Both the position numbers and the translations under genes were made by a program. The notes under the pieces were generated by a model that searched no databases, was not told the DNA's origin, and worked only from the letters and a program-made list of their open reading frames with translations. DNA of 64,000 bases from Nitrosopumilaceae archaeon (lineage in GTDB: Archaea > Thermoproteota > Nitrososphaeria > Nitrososphaerales > Nitrosopumilaceae). Where the stretch lies: positions 512,001 through 576,000 of the forward strand of contig OZ242365.1 in NCBI GenBank assembly GCA_965208905.1. The letters run 5' to 3'. Shown here in pieces: positions 18,076 through 43,482 of the stretch. Position 1 is the stretch's first letter. The number at the start of each line of letters is the position of its first letter.

Positions 18076-18182
18076 TGTTGTTGCTTGTGCTTTGTGTGTA
18101 TTATGTTATTTGTCCTTCAAACTAATACCCACAGTCTCTAAATTCCTGTGCTTGTGGGGAGGGACCAGCAATCGTAAATATT

Positions 18183-19647
18183 GGGAATTATATACAAAAG
18201 TACACAACCCCAATTCTGAGAGTTAATGCCTGAACCACGGATCGCGTCCATACAACTCCCCTTAAATACTAGCATACCGTATTATATATCATGATACGGG
18301 TAGTTAAGGTACCGCTACGGAGGGATGTGTTGTTTGCAGAGTGGGCGCACCGCACGAATCATGCGTCAAGATATGTGTACAACCGCGCCGTATCAGAGTA
18401 TTTGTTTGGTGGCGAATATAGGAGAGGGTGGTAGTGGACATCCTGCAGCCCTTCAAACTGCCGGGCAAGCTGGATTTTACATCAGGTATGCTGGACGATG
18501 ACTACCATACATATGATTTTGGGCCATCAAAGAATGTATTAAAGTACGGCATGTTCAAGCAGCTTACGGAGTGGCGCGCTGAACATGCATGGGTATCTGA
18601 CTTGCCTATGGTGTTTGGCAGGGGCGCCATACAAGATGCCTCTATCGCATGTAGAAGAGTTGTAGATGACAACTCCGGCCATGCGCCATACCGCCGCAAA
18701 GACGGCCGCATCATACTATACAGTGTAAATCCGCCTGTACGAAAAGGTGAGCACACCATACATATCCCCGGATATGGTATTGTAGAGACCGCCAAGCCCA
18801 TCGATGTATCGTGGGACATGCGGTCATTCAAGATAGTTGATGTCACCAAACGGGTGGACAAGCATACAAAGCCGTCAGACCACATGTTTGAGCTGCATAT
18901 TGCCGTGCGTGTACCGGTCGAGCCACACCATAATACAGGTGTAATGCGTGGCGTCGATGTGGGCGGCAAGCACCTGGCAGTTACTGTCGACACAAATGGC
19001 AATGTTACAATACACAACACCCGCCATAGAGCAATCCTGCGGGAGATTGACGCGCTAAAGAGTTTGCGCGACCGCAAGACACGGCATGGCCGGAAGTGGC
19101 ATATATTGAATGACCAAATAAAGCGGCTATACAGGAAGGCCAACAACATAGCCGCGAACACGATAAATCAGACGATTGCGCAGATAACTAGTGGTGTGGA
19201 CGCAGTCGTGGTCGAGTCGCTCTCCGTAAAGGACATGACCACACATGGTGGGAATTACAAACGCGCTATGAACCGTTCAATGCGGGAGAACCATGTTGGG
19301 GAGTTCCTGCGCAAGCTTGCGCAGTGGTGTGAGATACACAACATACCGCTGTTGGGGGCATCTGCCAAATACACGAGCCAGACGTGCCATGTGTGTGGTC
19401 ACGTAGACTCAGAGTCGCGTATATCACGCGACAAATTCATTTGCACAAATTGTACCAGGGTATTCCACGCGGATGTCAATGCCGCCTGGAATATTCTGTA
19501 TAGGGCGGCGGGGAACGTCGTCCTAAGACGGCCGGGGCACAAGGAGGGCTACAAGCCAACACCTTCTATGCTCCACTCCATACAACGAAGTCGTCAGAAA
19601 AGGCATGAGTGTACAGCCGAGGCTGTGTACTTTTGTATATAATTCCC
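18183..19647 (+). mobile_element. Non-autonomous TIR element encoding TnpB (element A)
   Basis: Perfect 24-bp TIR GGGAATTATATACAAAAGTACACA (18183-18206 / 19624-19647); perfect 8-bp TSD TAAATATT (18175-82, 19648-55). Confidence 0.93.
18291..19642 (+). CDS. tnpB: RNA-guided nuclease TnpB, with a frameshift near 18420
   Basis: N-terminus MIRVVKVPL...ASRYVYNRAV from 18291 in another frame; RuvC GVDVG / VVVESL / HADVNAA; Zn finger TSQTCHVC...CTNC; TATA-like CTTAAATA at 18262. Confidence 0.9.
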
Positions 19648-19676
19648 TAAATATTTGGGTGTATTACATATGAGTT

Positions 19677-38562: not shown

Positions 38563-41220
38563 TTGTTAAAAACCAGGTTAGGTGTAATTAGGTTGGCCCT
38601 AGCTAGTGCGATCACCAACGTAATAAAACGCAATGGTAGTACGGCCAAGTTCAATAAGAGCAAGATCTCCAATGCCATATACAAAGCCATGAACGCATGT
38701 TCAAAGCCTGACAAGCAGTTAGCCGATAGTCTAGCAGATCAGGTTATAGAGAATCTCATAAAGGGTGGATACTCTGACAAGTCCGTGCCCGGTGTCGAGA
38801 ATATACAAGATACTGTAGAGATAGTCCTCTTAGAAAACAAGCATAGCGATATAGCAAAGGCGTACATCTTGTATAGGCAAGATCGTCGAAAGATACGTAA
38901 TGAAAAGATGCACATACTCAACACAAAGACACTAGACCCGGTTGCTAGAAAATTTGATGCCAACTGTTTACGTGTACTAGCATCCCGATATCTATTTCGG
39001 GATTCGAACAGTCGTATTGTCGAGTCGCCCCAGCAGCTGTTTGAGAGAGTGGCAATACAAATTGGCATAGGGGATATGTTGTATGATCCCACGCTGTTTG
39101 ACAGGGACGGCGCACATACGCAAAATATTGAGGTTGCGCAGCAGTATCTACGAAAGCTTGACAATTTTGACAACAAGTTTCACATTGGCAAGTATTATCT
39201 AAATAAATGGCATTTTAGATCACTTATTACTCACTACATATATCTAGCTCGGAACAACAAGATGCGTGTCAAGTTTCGCGACATACTAGAGCTACTGGCA
39301 TCCAACAAGTTCGATGAGCTTGAAAACAAGATAACCAGTTATCTAGAGATAATGACATCACAGAAATACCTCCCCAACTCCCCCACCATGATGAATGCAG
39401 GGGGCCGTTTAGGTCAGCTTTCAGCATGTTTTGTTTTGGACATGAAAGATGACATGGAAGGTATAATGAAGTCCACCTCGGATGCAGCTCTCATATTCAA
39501 ATCCGGTGGTGGTGTGGGAATAAACTATTCAGATTTGCGCCATGAGGGCGACACTGTAGCCTCTACATTTGGAGTGGCATCAGGTCCTGTCTCATTCATG
39601 AATATAATCAATACAGTAACCGAGGTGGTGAAACAAGGAGGAAAGAGACGTGGCGCCAACATGGGGATTTTGGAGGTATGGCATCCAGATATAGAAAAGT
39701 TTGTGAGCAACAAGACAAAACCTGGTGTCTTGGAGAACTTTAACGTCTCAGTGGGTATATGGGAAGACTTTTGGGATGCCCTTCTTAACTCAGAGGATAA
39801 AAAGTACACACTGCGAAATCCTCGAGATCAAACTCCAGTGAAAGAGATCAACGCTCAACAACTGATAGACCAGATAGCGCTCTCGGCATGGAAGAGCGCT
39901 GAGCCTGGACTGATATTCCTTGATCAAATCAACAAGTATAATGTAATGGCCAAGGCACGCATGACACCTTTGCGAGCCACCAATCCGTGCGGCGAACAGA
40001 GTCTGTATCCCAACGAGTCCTGCAACTTGGGTTCTATAAATCTGGCAAACTTGGTCCATAAGACAGAAGATGGCACATATGAGTTCGATTGGGAAGACTA
40101 TGAGCGTATAATACGTCAGACGACTAGATTCTTAGATAATGTGGTGGATGTAAACCAATATCCTGTAGAACAGATTAACGAGGCCTCCAAGGAGTCCCGG
40201 CGTATTGGATTAGGTGTAATGGGCGTAGCAGATTTACTGTACAAGCTGCGTGTACCATATAACTCAGAGGAGGGATATGCACTACAGTCTCGTTTGGCCG
40301 AGGCTCTATCGTACTTTTCCATGGATGAGTCAGTTGAGCTGGCAAAGGAGAGAGGCGCCTTCAAGCTGTATCCAAACACAGAGTATCCTGAAGGTCGTAT
40401 CCCCATAGCTGGACATTATGAATGCGAGGATAGTATGTACGATTGGAGTTCTTTAATTAAGAATATCACAACATATGGTATAAGGAACGTACTCACGACT
40501 ACTGTAGCCCCCACAGGCACGCTGTCCATGATTGCAGATTGCTCTAATGGCATGGAACCCAACTTTGCCTTGGTGTATGAAAAGCGTGTCACTATAGGCA
40601 AGTTCATGTACGTCAACAAGATACTCAAAGAAGCCCTAGAAGAGGAGGGACTATACAATGATAGTATACTTGAGAGTATAATAAACAACTACGGCTCACT
40701 TCGAGGCATAGATGATATACCCGGGTGGATGCAGGACGTCTTTGTTACGGCCATGGACATACATTGGTCAGATCATTTAATGGCCCAGGCGGTGTGGCAG
40801 AGATGGATAAGTAATGCCATTGCAAAGACCATCAATATGCCGTATGATGTTACCGTTGAGGATGTAAAGGCGGCATATCTTTTGGCACATGAGATGGGAT
40901 TAAAAGGAATTACAGTATATAGGGATGGTTCAAGGCAGAGTCAGGTTATGAATATGGCCGATGATGATGCTAAAAAATTGTTTGAGGTGGCCCCCAGTAA
41001 ACTAATGTTAAAATTTGTCTCGGAGCATACAACAGATTCATACGCAGGACAGCGTGTCCGCGATGCGCTAGTTCCAAAGATATACAATCGTGAGACCCAC
41101 ATCAACAATGTTGAGGTGTCCGAAGAGATGCTGTGTCCTACCTGCAAGAGTCATCTGATATTTGCTGAGGGTTGTAGCATATGTGTAGAGTGTGGCTTTA
41201 GCGGTTGTACTTCCAGTTAA
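38563..41220 (+). CDS. nrdJ: Adenosylcobalamin-dependent ribonucleotide reductase (class II) with ATP cone
   Basis: VIKRNG ATP cone, PNSPT, SACF, TNPCGE, APTGT, KGITVYRDGSR, C-terminal Zn ribbon; no intein seen; start uncertain. Confidence 0.95.
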   Translation: MLKTRLGVIRLALASAITNVIKRNGSTAKFNKSKISNAIYKAMNACSKPDKQLADSLADQVIENLIKGGYSDKSVPGVENIQDTVEIVLLENKHSDIAKAYILYRQDRRKIRNEKMHILNTKTLDPVARKFDANCLRVLASRYLFRDSNSRIVESPQQLFERVAIQIGIGDMLYDPTLFDRDGAHTQNIEVAQQYLRKLDNFDNKFHIGKYYLNKWHFRSLITHYIYLARNNKMRVKFRDILELLASNKFDELENKITSYLEIMTSQKYLPNSPTMMNAGGRLGQLSACFVLDMKDDMEGIMKSTSDAALIFKSGGGVGINYSDLRHEGDTVASTFGVASGPVSFMNIINTVTEVVKQGGKRRGANMGILEVWHPDIEKFVSNKTKPGVLENFNVSVGIWEDFWDALLNSEDKKYTLRNPRDQTPVKEINAQQLIDQIALSAWKSAEPGLIFLDQINKYNVMAKARMTPLRATNPCGEQSLYPNESCNLGSINLANLVHKTEDGTYEFDWEDYERIIRQTTRFLDNVVDVNQYPVEQINEASKESRRIGLGVMGVADLLYKLRVPYNSEEGYALQSRLAEALSYFSMDESVELAKERGAFKLYPNTEYPEGRIPIAGHYECEDSMYDWSSLIKNITTYGIRNVLTTTVAPTGTLSMIADCSNGMEPNFALVYEKRVTIGKFMYVNKILKEALEEEGLYNDSILESIINNYGSLRGIDDIPGWMQDVFVTAMDIHWSDHLMAQAVWQRWISNAIAKTINMPYDVTVEDVKAAYLLAHEMGLKGITVYRDGSRQSQVMNMADDDAKKLFEVAPSKLMLKFVSEHTTDSYAGQRVRDALVPKIYNRETHINNVEVSEEMLCPTCKSHLIFAEGCSICVECGFSGCTSS

Positions 41221-41233
41221 ATTATACACTTTG

Positions 41234-41917
41234 ATGTATCATGTGGTTTTAGCCGAATCAGCACTTGAGACTGTTCCTAATTCAATTGCAAATCATCCTG
41301 CTGTGATGCATCATGCCCAAAAGTTGGGGCGTCATGTATCCCAAATACTATTGGACAAATCTTGGCATTATGCTGCAATGAAGGGTATGCAAGATGTTCA
41401 TAAGCGTGGACGGCCTGATCTGGTTCATTTCTCCCTACTGTCGGCCATAGCTACGCCCCTATATCAGCGTGCATTGATGAAGTTGTACATACACACAATA
41501 CAGGATACGGTTATACGGTTTGCAGATAACATAAGAATACCAAAGTCGTATCACCGATTTGAAGGGTTGTTCTCCAAGTTGCTATACCAAAACAGTATAG
41601 AGTCTGAGGGTCGTATGCTACTAGAGGCGCAAAAAGGTACCATGTATGATCTGATAAAATCGATAAATCCCACAGATACAATAGGTCTCTCTGTGCGCGG
41701 CAAACAGATTATCGATGAGAATGTAATTGGTAGATTGGGAGAGAATCCATGTATTGTAATTGGAGGCTTTCAGAAAGGAGAGTTCACCAGACCAACTAGT
41801 AATACATTTGATTGCATATATAGTGTGTCGTCCATGCCACTGGAGGCTCACGTTGTAATGAGTCGTATCTTATATGATATGGAGCGATGGTGCTCATCTC
41901 AATTCAACGGTGTCTGA
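41234..41917 (+). CDS. nep1: 16S rRNA pseudouridine N1-methyltransferase Nep1
   Basis: AESALE, RGRPDLVH, RIPKSY.RF, IGGF. Confidence 0.92.
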   Translation: MYHVVLAESALETVPNSIANHPAVMHHAQKLGRHVSQILLDKSWHYAAMKGMQDVHKRGRPDLVHFSLLSAIATPLYQRALMKLYIHTIQDTVIRFADNIRIPKSYHRFEGLFSKLLYQNSIESEGRMLLEAQKGTMYDLIKSINPTDTIGLSVRGKQIIDENVIGRLGENPCIVIGGFQKGEFTRPTSNTFDCIYSVSSMPLEAHVVMSRILYDMERWCSSQFNGV

Positions 41918-41921
41918 TTTC

Positions 41922-43341
41922 GGGAATTATATACCTGGGTATGCACGCGTAACATACGCGTACATTCCTAGGTGCTTCATGGCGCTTGATGTCTTGGGTC
42001 GATTGCACGCTTGATTCTCACGCCGCCGTCTGGCGTCCGGAACTGCACAAACAGGTGGCTTCCGGGTCCGGCCCATTTCACGCCTTTCGAGGGCTATTCC
42101 TTCCCCCGCGGGAACCTTCATACCGGTCCCCCGTTGTATGATATTCACCGGCGCATTGCCATCGGCGTTTGCTACATGGTTACATCTAAGGCACTTGAAC
42201 ATCTCCCCATTTCGGTTCTCCTTGGATATGTAGCCGCATATACTGCACTCCTGGCTCGTGTGTTTTGGACTTACCTCTACTACACGGATGCCCAGCCGCT
42301 CTGCGATGGTGTGGATCTTTCGCAGTATTGCATAATGCCGAATGAACCTCATACCGCGGTTCATACCCTTCTTGTGCCTGCCACCGCGCCTGCTCATGGC
42401 CTCGAGGTTGAGCTGCTCGACATATATTACATCCACGCCCTCGCATATCTTCTTGGCCAATAACCACTCTGCATACTCGCGGTCGTTCGCATTACCGCGG
42501 TTGTACTTTTCTCGCTTGCGTTTAATTTTACACGTCGAGTTGGAGTGTTTATTGCGATGTGAGATGGTACGGCGCGTCTCATCATTCCATGTACGGTTCG
42601 TGCGGAATGCGGTTGCTGTATCGTATAATGTTATATTTGAGGCGTTATGGTCTGTCTTGCACACGACGGTCGGATTTGTTATCCCTCTGTCTATGCCGGC
42701 AACAACACCAGTCTTGGCGCGCCGTTCGGGTACTGGTACGTCATATGTTATGTGCAGCCGGTAGATATGGTCACATGACTTGACGTGCCCCCATGACTTT
42801 GGTGTTACACATACCAAACGGAAAGACCTTGAGCCATACAGCCAGTTATGTGGAAACTGATATGGCTGCTCCTCAGACAACTCAACAACACCAAGGCCCG
42901 GCAATGACGCGTGCCTGTTGTCCACAAATCGCGGCTGCACATCACATGATACTGCCTTTTTATTATCGCGCTTTCTGGAGCGGAAACTCAGCTCGCCATT
43001 GCCGTATTTGTTCGAGACATCCACAGCAGTGCGGGCCTGATGGATGGCCGTATTTTGGTAGATGCGCTCCACTGTTTGTAGCCACGATACGGAACGCCTC
43101 ACCTTGGTGAACTCTCTGGAGAGGTCATATGTAGTAAGTGTGGGGTTAGTAAGCAGCCGCTCCACGGCCCAGTTGTACACGAACCGTTGTGAGTCCCGTA
43201 TTTTGGATATGTGACGCGCCTGAGAGCGTGTCAGGTCTATGCGGAAGCCATAAGACCGATACATGTAGTTTTGTATACCATAATACTTTATAAACATGTA
43301 CTCTACAGGACTTGCCTTGCCTACCCAGGTATATAATTCTC
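41922..43341 (-). mobile_element. Non-autonomous TIR element encoding TnpB (element B)
   Basis: TIR GGGAATTATATACCTGGGTA (41922-41) vs GAGAATTATATACCTGGGTA (reverse complement of 43322-41), 19/20; flanks CTGATTTC (41914-21) / TTAATTTC (43342-49), 6/8. Confidence 0.9.
41927..43264 (-). CDS. tnpB: RNA-guided nuclease TnpB (intact)
   Basis: MYRSYGFRI...RFVYN; RuvC GIDRG / IYVEQL / NADGNA; TSQECSIC...CLRC; TATA TTTATAAA about 25 nt upstream. Confidence 0.92.
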   Translation of the reverse strand: MYRSYGFRIDLTRSQARHISKIRDSQRFVYNWAVERLLTNPTLTTYDLSREFTKVRRSVSWLQTVERIYQNTAIHQARTAVDVSNKYGNGELSFRSRKRDNKKAVSCDVQPRFVDNRHASLPGLGVVELSEEQPYQFPHNWLYGSRSFRLVCVTPKSWGHVKSCDHIYRLHITYDVPVPERRAKTGVVAGIDRGITNPTVVCKTDHNASNITLYDTATAFRTNRTWNDETRRTISHRNKHSNSTCKIKRKREKYNRGNANDREYAEWLLAKKICEGVDVIYVEQLNLEAMSRRGGRHKKGMNRGMRFIRHYAILRKIHTIAERLGIRVVEVSPKHTSQECSICGYISKENRNGEMFKCLRCNHVANADGNAPVNIIQRGTGMKVPAGEGIALERREMGRTRKPPVCAVPDARRRRENQACNRPKTSSAMKHLGMYAYVTRAYPGI

Positions 43342-43392
43342 TTAATTTCACCTACATCATTTTTATGTAGGTCAGCGATTGGTGTGACTTGT

Positions 43393-43466
43393 GCGGTCAT
43401 AGTATAGCCTGGTTAGTATGTTGGCCTTCCAAGCCAATTACCCGGGTTCAAATCCCGGTGACCGCA
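43393..43466 (+). tRNA. tRNA-Gly(TCC)
   Basis: Acceptor GCGGTCA/TGACCGC, anticodon arm TTGGC-CTTCCAA-GCCAA, T-loop GGTTCAAATCC. Confidence 0.96.
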
Positions 43467-43482
43467 CTGTGGTGTTATTGAT

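Follow-up and report, generated by a model that had tools for sequence, protein, structure and literature searches.

How could an RNA-guided homing nuclease serve a DDE transposon that duplicates its target site? An element in 64,000 nucleotides of DNA from a Nitrosopumilaceae archaeon (GenBank assembly GCA_965208905.1, contig OZ242365.1) bears on this point. The whole stretch is called the window, and coordinates are window positions unless a genome position is named. The window corresponds to positions 512001-576000 of a single-contig genome (G000) of 2.21 Mb with 45.6% G+C and 99.6% completeness. The element, element B, lies at 41922-43341. It is probably a non-autonomous transposon of the IS1595 family (DDE, GG-tipped repeats, 8-bp duplication) that carries an intact tnpB gene as its sole cargo and is mobilised, targeted and guided as proposed below. 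Its homologues, from Cenarchaeum-like and Nitrosopumilaceae assemblies, are labelled 'IS200/IS605 family element transposase accessory protein TnpB', 'IS605 OrfB family transposase' or 'transposase' at source. In the available text of a review (PMC13565253), prokaryotic TnpB-DDE pairings are described as rare and the use of a homing nuclease in them is only conjectured.

The element and its ends

Element B is 1,420 bp long and its terminal inverted repeats (TIRs) match at 19/20 positions. The parts of the element are as follows.

41922-41941, + strand: right end (RE) TIR, on the tnpB 3' side, GGGAATTATATACCTGGGTA
43322-43341, - strand: left end (LE) TIR, on the tnpB 5' side, GAGAATTATATACCTGGGTA, with its second base changed from G to A
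41914-41921: target duplication on the RE side, CTGATTTC; it includes the TGA that ends nep1 (41915-41917)
43342-43349: target duplication on the LE side, TTAATTTC, which differs from CTGATTTC by two transitions (6/8)
41927-43264, - strand (ATG at 43264): tnpB, intact, 445 aa, identified by Pfam matches and residues
43287-43294, - strand: the element's own TATA box, TTTATAAA, 22 nt before the tnpB ATG

The outer 13-mer of the TIR, GGGAATTATATAC, is common to element B and to a second element in the window, element A, where it is found at both ends (18183-18195 and 19635-19647). With up to 2 mismatches the 13-mer has 7 matches in the window, compared with a shuffle mean of 2.07, and 7 was reached in 0/100 shuffles. 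The inner TIR segment differs by element. It is AAAAGTACACA in element A, where the two ends match at 24/24 positions, and CTGGGTA in element B. The shared outer motif, the element-specific inner segment, the 6/8 flanking duplication and an intact TnpB with its own TATA box had all been claimed in a first-pass annotation of the window, and all of them hold. The same is true of its claim that the two TnpB proteins are clearly different, as they share about 30% identity over about 340 aa.

The element B TnpB matches the Pfam families HTH_OrfB_IS605, OrfB_IS605 and Cas12f1-like_TNB, with E-values of 6e-8 for OrfB_IS605 and 2e-16 for Cas12f1-like TNB. It has a RuvC triad (D192/E283/D368) and a zinc finger (CSIC340/CLRC358); a D-E-D triad and a zinc finger had been noted in the annotation. 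In an alignment to Cas12f/TnpB structures, the counterparts of D192 and D368 in chain 7l48_A are D326 and D510; E283 was placed by the hydrophobic-x3-E-x-L pattern and is 2 residues off the printed alignment. The Cas12f residues aligned to the triad are those we take to be catalytic. Over the first 1,125 nt of tnpB, identity at third codon positions is 0.39-0.49 versus 0.65-0.79 at first and second positions, a pattern that fits purifying selection on the protein. The stop codon (41927-41929, - strand) sits within the RE TIR, 5 nt from the tip, and the TTTATAAA box is kept in other copies of lineage B.

The three mismatches in the ends and duplication are all transitions and lie within 11 bp (43340-43349), in the LE and its copy of the duplication. 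The letters of DNA run X1 agree with the window at these three positions.

The insertion site

The element is inserted between nep1 and a tRNA gene, downstream of which lies an Rpr2-type gene. In the window, the gap between the end of nep1 (its stop codon) and the TATA box of the tRNA gene is only about 15 nt.

41192-41917, + strand: nep1, EMG1/NEP1 methyltransferase (PF03587, E 2e-49)
43361-43366 (in tttttatg, 43360-43367), + strand: TATA box in the host's tRNA-Gly promoter, at 12-17 nt from the duplication
43393-43467, + strand: tRNA-Gly(TCC), the sole Rfam match in the region

If the element arrived by transposition with an 8-bp duplication, the empty site should hold the 8-mer once. Searching 30 relatives with nep1 identified G005 as the closest (93% aa identity in Nep1), and its site is empty with one copy of CTGATTTC, so that a refuting check proposed in the annotation was passed. 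The G005 site reads ...gtgtCTGATTTCacctacatc..., and ...gtgtCTGATTTCacctacatcatttttatgtagg... runs straight into tRNA-Gly, whose TATA box is likewise present. G008 is unoccupied too, with nep1 followed directly by tRNA-Gly. Because the copy at 41914-41921 is identical to the single copy in G005, it is the original 8-mer. The comparison therefore assigns two transitions to the copy at 43342-43349 and one to the adjoining repeat (43322-43341). The six other full-length B copies in the genome all keep their end pairs, which also agrees with the earlier proposal, and their duplications are 8/8 in five and 7/8 in one; the 6/8 of the window copy makes up the seven.

The insertion is carried by contigs of three DNA runs from three studies (X1, X3 and X8), and runs labelled as sponge metagenomes contain the locus. 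All three runs span the right junction. Across the left junction the bridge measures 43 letters in X8 and 30 letters in both X1 and X3. No empty allele (41921 joined to 43342 or 43350) was listed among the reads or contigs of four runs, which is no proof of its absence.

A family of ends and its transposases

What moves an element that has these ends? The end 13-mer has 77 matches in the genome with up to 1 mismatch, versus 1 for a reversed control, and it is enriched in 5/5 congeners tested. The annotation was thus right to call element B a member of a family and not a one-off. The ends form 29 candidate pairs; in 18 of these the duplication is perfect (8/8), and most pairs bound elements of about 1.42-1.48 kb that are filled by a single tnpB. 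By tblastn, 59 clusters of tnpB-like hits were found in the genome. Lineage A has 13 copies with a duplication of at least 7/8 and one deletion derivative. Lineage B comprises three B1 copies, whose ends are symmetric, four B2 copies, whose left end has diverged, and fragments. A third TnpB is found in type E, a 1,639-bp element with 45-nt repeats. There are also copies of 115, 372 and 430 bp resembling MITEs (miniature transposable elements with inverted repeats); these have no gene, the same tips and perfect 8-bp duplications.

18183-19647, + strand: element A, with 24/24 TIRs, a perfect duplication TAAATATT (18175-18182 and 19648-19655) and a frameshifted tnpB

Four elements of the genome share the first 10-13 nt of these ends, start with GGGAATTATA, and encode proteins that match PF12762 and PF12760 and so combine DDE_Tnp_IS1595 with Zn_ribbon_IS1595.

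Genome 1043578-1046414 (L001:501-3337): partner element of 2,837 bp, duplication AAAATTAT
Genome 1770047-1772736 (L002:501-3190): partner element of 2,690 bp, duplication CAATTTTA
A pair of two copies, 2,131 bp each: partner elements, duplications AAAATTAT and AAAAAAAT

All four duplications are perfect, 8 bp long and AT-rich, and the four intact transposases are 75-83% identical among themselves. Partner type iii shares TGGGTAG (positions 15-21) with the B1 repeat. Neither a Y1 transposase (PF01797) nor a serine recombinase (PF00239) was matched in the genome, while control genomes were positive.

A composite element in a congener, G001 (L107:1606-4167, - strand), joins the two genes. It carries the gene for a 320-aa IS1595 transposase (L107:3153-4115) and, head to tail with it, a B-type tnpB of 441 aa. 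Its ends are GATACCGG followed by GGGAATTATCG... (GGGAATT...) on one side and ...TATAATTCCC (...AATTCCC) followed by GATACCGG on the other, which makes one perfect 8-bp duplication. This marks one transposition event, in which an IS1595 left end served together with a TnpB right end. As far as sequence can tell, this is the strongest evidence at hand that IS1595 transposases act on these ends. Among transposase-bearing elements in G005, G006, G009 and G001, 18 short loci gave just 3 end pairs. At a G006 locus where a transposase lies beside tnpB (L106), neither a matching duplication nor a left end with at most 2 mismatches was seen, and the locus was left unused.

Lineage B copies have the 8-bp duplication of the IS1595 family and share their GG-tipped TIRs with the transposase-bearing elements. 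An IS1595 transposase is encoded solely in the partner elements and in the G001 composite, and element B is therefore called non-autonomous. IS200/IS605 elements have a Y1 HUH partner and no TIRs or target-site duplications (TSDs), and IS607 elements have a serine recombinase and likewise no TIR or TSD; element B fits neither description. It is not an IS200/IS605 element because IS1595 elements have the same tips, the composite exists, the duplications are 8 bp long and the genome has no Y1 or serine transposase.

B-lineage TnpBs (E <= 1e-60) are found in 6/10 genomes of the genus, and in that genus alone among 27 genera sampled in the family; at this threshold none was found in G005. Relatives at 55-67% protein identity retain the GGGAATTATAT... 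tips and 8-bp duplications. For B-lineage loci that yielded an end pair, the duplication was at least 7/8 in 23/25, and in a second batch in 11/11.

Of the three B1 copies, the one in the window is the oldest. It shares about 92% identity with the other two, and those two share 99.9% with each other. The young pair (genome 352058-353477 and 2062478-2063897) has intact ends and duplications of 7/8 and 8/8. The annotation considered the window copy the best candidate for biochemical testing. This is doubtful, as the young pair, with its cleaner ends, is preferable to a copy with one repeat mismatch and a 6/8 duplication. The B2 copies at genome positions 862275 and 2182264 have no ATG, and the one at 862275 also has in-frame stop codons.

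It had also been suggested that distinct TnpB lineages diversified inside these ends. At least three lineages (A, B and E) are indeed found between them, but the word 'diversified' is left unsettled by a quick tree of 29 TnpB proteins of the genome, from which two proteins below 330 aa were excluded. In this tree A, B, and E together with a further group, C, form an unresolved three-way split, which would suit diversification in place as well as several separate captures.

Target rules of lineages A and B

Where do these elements insert? The lineage B set consists of 35 independent insertions from six genomes (36 before one shared site was removed). Loci were excluded if they had no recognisable end pair or if their duplication matched at fewer than 6/8 positions, and all other positions of the same loci served as background. 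In the host DNA on the LE side there is an AT hexamer at -17 to -12 from the duplication (A21 T25 A24 T20 A26 A23 of 35), and also a T at -8 and a C at -5; the RE side is flat.

At least 5 A/T in the hexamer: 30/35, background 7%, p 5e-30
Outward open reading frame (ORF) of at least 50 aa starting 22-25 nt beyond the hexamer: 19/35, background 7.7%, p 9e-13
Hexamer and ORF both: 18/35, background 0.55%, p 1e-31

The mirrored position on the RE side scores 2/35. The distance from hexamer to start peaks at 23 nt (11 cases), and 19/23 of the qualifying starts that lie 15-34 nt beyond -17 fall at 22-25 nt. Archaeal promoters of leaderless genes have a characteristic geometry of B recognition element (BRE), TATA box and start. 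The lineage B target pattern is the geometry of such a BRE-TATA promoter driving a leaderless gene. The duplication ends 39-42 nt upstream of the start, the LE faces the promoter and tnpB points away from it. In the window the hexamer is the TATA box of tRNA-Gly, which starts at 43393, and the G001 composite is found at the same offset with the hexamer TTATTA. A reading of the lineage B flanks as a transposon-associated motif (TAM) was dropped. The T at -8 and C at -5 are weak (corrected p about 0.05-0.2), in hold-out data the C at -5 occurs in only 5/11, and the two letters are better explained as the BRE purines (A, G) on the host strand.

Lineage A follows a different rule. Its duplications are AT-rich (TWAAWWWW) and the consensus across the duplication edge is ATNG/TWAA. 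A G stands just outside the duplication on the LE (tnpB 5') side in 14/14 copies of the genome (window 18171-18182 and 13 others) and in 6/8 in relatives. The p value for this G at -1 is about 5e-9 for 13/13. T is common at -3 and A at -4, and the motif is not mirrored at the RE. It could be a TAM or an asymmetric transposase target; if it is a TAM, then the RE tip ...TCCC would protect the occupied site. Promoter targeting by lineage A is unsupported, with no fixed ORF distance and an AT hexamer at -17 to -12 in only 6/14. Among the autonomous copies and MITEs of the genome (n=7), 5 have a G beside the duplication on one side, which is too few to separate a preference of the transposase from chance.

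The annotation proposed that one transposase recognises the outer motif. A separate transposase does exist, in the four same-tip IS1595 elements. The word 'one' is not supported, as the A and B target rules differ and the composite transposase shares only about 55% identity with the intact ones; more than one transposase lineage therefore serves the shared tip. It also follows from these two points that the inner repeat probably matters.

A putative omegaRNA and guide

Two further features are predicted at the 3' end of tnpB.

41922-42181, - strand: putative omegaRNA scaffold (the RE TIR together with the final ~200 nt of the ORF), suggested by conservation, with its best-kept block at 41945-42124
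41902-41921, - strand: candidate guide region (reading outward from the RE, through the 8-bp duplication and 12 nt of flank), suggested by analogy

Nucleotide identity between the window copy and 10 relatives (55-67% aa identity) is about 0.6 along the ORF and 0.76-0.88 in the last ~200 nt, where third-position identity rises from 0.39-0.49 to 0.70. RNAalifold, applied to the last 260 nt of 18 sequences, gave a consensus fold with 56 pairs. Its terminal hairpin draws the 3' arm from the inner part of the repeat. This would account for the lineage-specific inner repeat, as the RE copy would have to serve both the RNA and the transposase. Rfam gave no family match to the scaffold and found only the tRNA. 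The candidate guide was placed by analogy with the build of IS200/IS605 TnpB and Fanzor reRNAs, as given in the available text of PMC10711439.

Contigs of an RNA run (X19) cover 41948-43166 at 90-99% likeness but leave the flanking genes and 43182-43343 uncovered; they are not this exact copy. One contig of an RNA library crosses a B2-type end by 2 nt into the flank; contigs cannot show ends, and carry-over of DNA is possible.

Proposed mechanism and alternatives

The following series of events is proposed. An IS1595 transposase acting in trans would move element B, and its likeliest source is the lineage that stands beside the B-type tnpB in G001. This transposase would integrate at the upstream edge of a promoter, with the LE facing it and the duplication ending 39-42 nt upstream of the start and 4 nt beyond the BRE. 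In the window the targeted promoter would be that of tRNA-Gly. The tnpB gene would be transcribed from its own TATA box, and by homology with known systems the last ~200 nt and the RE repeat would fold as an omegaRNA scaffold. By the same homology the transcript would leave the element, so that the duplication and adjoining flank act as guide, and the TnpB-RNA complex would cut unoccupied or precisely excised alleles, after which recombination with an occupied copy would restore the element. The role in homing and retention is transferred from work on IS200/IS605 elements and Fanzors. A precise repair by microhomology between the two 8-mers would restore exactly what a guide composed of duplication and flank matches.

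A more specific mechanism can be put forward only as a tentative and rather doubtful suggestion. In it a transposase of the IS1595 lineage uses the promoter complex (TBP/TFB on BRE-TATA), or its DNA shape, as a ruler that sets insertion about 40 nt upstream in one orientation, and TnpB-omegaRNA with a guide of duplication and flank re-converts empty alleles. If this is true, the element would be the first promoter-edge-targeting transposon described in archaea. The genome, which has no Y1 or serine transposase, would then keep about 50 tnpB copies wholly on DDE-type vehicles, as a prokaryotic counterpart of the Fanzors.

Several observations weigh against the proposed series of events. The only long ORF of element B is tnpB and no transposase lies inside it. 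Mobilisation in trans by an IS1595 transposase is suggested only indirectly, by the perfect duplication around transposase and tnpB in L107 and by the 99.9%-identical B1 pair at two sites. The composite transposase is only about 55% identical to the four intact transposases of the genome, where its kin survive only as fragments (65% identity over 143 aa at genome 1507156-1507572, plus two others). The autonomous copies have AT-rich duplications like lineage A and unlike lineage B. Positions -4 to -1 next to the lineage B duplication are flat, with no TAM-like motif. Few pairs of the RNA fold are compensatory (6/56), the covariation term is small (-2.38 kcal/mol), and the overlapping ORF also constrains the sequence. 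The fixed promoter distance could come partly from the survival of harmless insertions in a compact genome. To our knowledge, it has not been established whether IS1595 elements move by a cut-and-paste or a copy mechanism.

The alternative that survives best, although we consider it unlikely, keeps the same ends and mobility and makes TnpB a passenger with another role (regulation, defence or addiction), or makes promoter targeting a matter of survivorship. The flat lineage B flanks, the tiny intergenic room in the window and the constant place of the elements beside a promoter speak for it. In addition, according to the available text of PMC13565253, a break arises from DDE excision in any case, and the benefit of a homing nuclease is then less obvious. 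However, the triad is intact and the protein appears to be under purifying selection, and TnpB is therefore not a nuclease-dead regulator. The distance distribution is also sharp (19/23 at 22-25 nt) and one-sided (30/35 versus 2/35), and neither is expected from survivorship alone.

Could TnpB, a RuvC-fold nuclease, itself integrate the element or direct its integration, with the IS1595 elements merely sharing its tips? TnpB-only elements are several-fold more numerous than the four that bear a transposase, and A and B share the outer 13 bp, yet their target rules follow the TnpB lineage. The MITE-like copies nevertheless have the same tips and perfect 8-bp duplications with no tnpB, and the G001 composite used an IS1595 end. 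An 8-bp duplication is a hallmark of IS1595 in the available text of PMC8101967, and there is no record of TnpB transposase activity in that of PMC13565253 or PMC10691335. This explanation is highly improbable. An ordinary IS200/IS605 (IS1341-type) TnpB-only element, moved as single-stranded DNA by a Y1 TnpA, is hardly credible, for although the database names of the homologues say IS200/IS605 and the Pfam domains are the usual ones, the element has 19/20 TIRs and 8-bp duplications of variable sequence, neither of which IS200/IS605 has in the available text of PMC13565253, the genome has no Y1 or serine recombinase, and identical tips are found on elements with an IS1595 transposase.

Other mobile elements of the genome

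Two partner elements carry passengers. The passenger of L001 is an intact N6/N4 DNA methyltransferase fused to an HNH nuclease (454 aa), and the same gene is split in L002 (346 + 150 aa). Transposase fragments nearer to the composite enzyme (62-65%) lie at genome 1506930-1507572, 1365500-1365727 and 79508-79789, and are left over from a second transposase lineage of this genome.

TnpB group C is found between different inverted repeats (TGGGCTGTGACGTTATC...), at genome 250605-252075 (L110) and 2209813-2211265, with duplications of 7/8 and 8/8. A 3.4-kb element (L108, genome 1130913-1134319) has tips like those of group C (12/16) and an IS240/rve-type DDE transposase; it also encodes a D12 methyltransferase and a HaeIII-like restriction enzyme. 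Group C and L108 may be a second TnpB-carrying DDE family in the same genome. For TnpB group D (about 8 proteins) a scan found no inverted repeats of at least 12 nt.

The two type-E elements (L007, genome 1455264-1456902, and genome 2049469-2051107; both 1,639 bp) each lack a matching duplication. The left flank of one, TAATTTCC, recurs as the right flank of its partner, which lies about 594 kb distant and has the same orientation; this implies a rearrangement between the two copies. A lineage-A element (L003:501-3078, genome 1972621-1975198) with a perfect duplication, AAAAGATA, has its tnpB split by another insertion sequence (IS), which encodes a 335-aa DDE_3/HTH transposase with IS630-like domains. 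At genome 1098880-1110456 (L034 and L035), pieces of a B-lineage tnpB (aa 255-445, 233-257 and 1-242) lie about 10 kb apart, and the gene was presumably broken by a large insertion or rearrangement.

Significance

This locus and its roughly 60 relatives in six genomes make up a compact natural system. It offers defined ends, a partner transposase that was once joined to tnpB, an empty site, young copies and two TnpB lineages with contrasting target rules. The system is suited to three questions: where the guide starts relative to the duplication, what the TAM is, and which protein sets the target. If the promoter-edge rule (30/35) is mechanistic, mobile DNA in archaea would have a way of choosing targets that is new, and archaeal pre-initiation complexes might be approached through it. 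Here the element family is wrongly assigned by the routine label 'IS200/IS605 accessory protein TnpB'.

Comparison with known systems

TnpB in DDE transposons is known in general; an IS1595 partner and the promoter-edge rule were not found in print. The available text of Altae-Tran 2023 (PNAS, PMC10691335) describes six DDE-associated TnpB branches (DDE-1 to DDE-6), with IS630 named, and that of the 2026 review (PMC13565253) names ISL2, IS630 and IS1031 as linked to TnpB. IS1595 has zero mentions in the main texts of both as available, and their supplements may list such a branch. A literature search, judged by titles and the openings of abstracts, found no IS1595 element with TnpB cargo. The search also found nothing on TnpB in Cenarchaeum, on thaumarchaeal TnpB insertion sequences, or on the choice of a TATA box or TFB as target by archaeal insertion sequences.

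Element B resembles the DDE branches in the available text of PMC10691335 in being a prokaryotic TnpB within inverted-repeat ends, with the 3' end of tnpB less than 250 bp from the element end. Solo TnpBs between ends near-identical to those of transposase-bearing elements were already interpreted there as mobilised in trans. Unlike in that text, the transposase and tnpB are in separate elements here and joined at one congener locus only, several TnpB lineages share one tip, and there is a promoter-edge target rule. Archaeal TnpB-only elements of the IS1341 type, from the IS200/IS605 group, have sense-overlapping RNAs at the 3' end in the available text of PMC4615843. They share with element B a single tnpB and a conserved, RNA-like 3' region. 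They have no TIRs or TSDs and depend on Y1 TnpA, and element B differs on both counts.

The IS1595 family, in the available text of PMC8101967, has an 8-bp TSD and a transposase with a Zn ribbon and DDE_Tnp_IS1595, and is divided into the subgroups ISPna2, ISH4, IS1016, IS1595, ISSod11, ISNwi1 and ISNha5. Like the family, the elements studied here have 8-bp duplications, GG-tipped repeats and partner transposases with both domains; unlike its members, element B has no transposase of its own. Ends of the ISNwi1 group read ggnnatTAT (ISfinder), and some members carry passenger genes. The element tip, GGGAATTAT, presumably fits an ISNwi1-type end.

Targeting relative to a promoter is known from eukaryotic retrotransposons that are tethered to TFIIIB/TFIIIC. 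Ty3 integrates at Pol III start sites, and Dictyostelium TRE5-A integrates about 48 bp upstream of tRNA genes. Element B is like them in its fixed distance and orientation to a promoter complex, and unlike them in being a DDE-type DNA element in an archaeon.

In eukaryotes, Fanzor1 and 'Fanzor2*' occur in cut-and-paste transposons with TIRs and TSDs, as described in the available texts of Bao & Jurka 2013 (PMC3627910) and Yoon 2023 (PMC10711439). Like these, element B is a non-autonomous TIR/TSD element whose only gene is of the TnpB kind. In those texts the 3' end encodes the Fanzor guide RNA, which passes through the inverted repeat and on into the flank; this is likened to the layout proposed here. 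The 8-bp duplication is variable and therefore cannot be a fixed part of the RNA scaffold, as was proposed for Fanzors. Element B also differs in being archaeal and having a typical short TnpB, which is apparently no member of the Fanzor clades. Fanzors in TIR/TSD transposons are the closest working analogue of element B.

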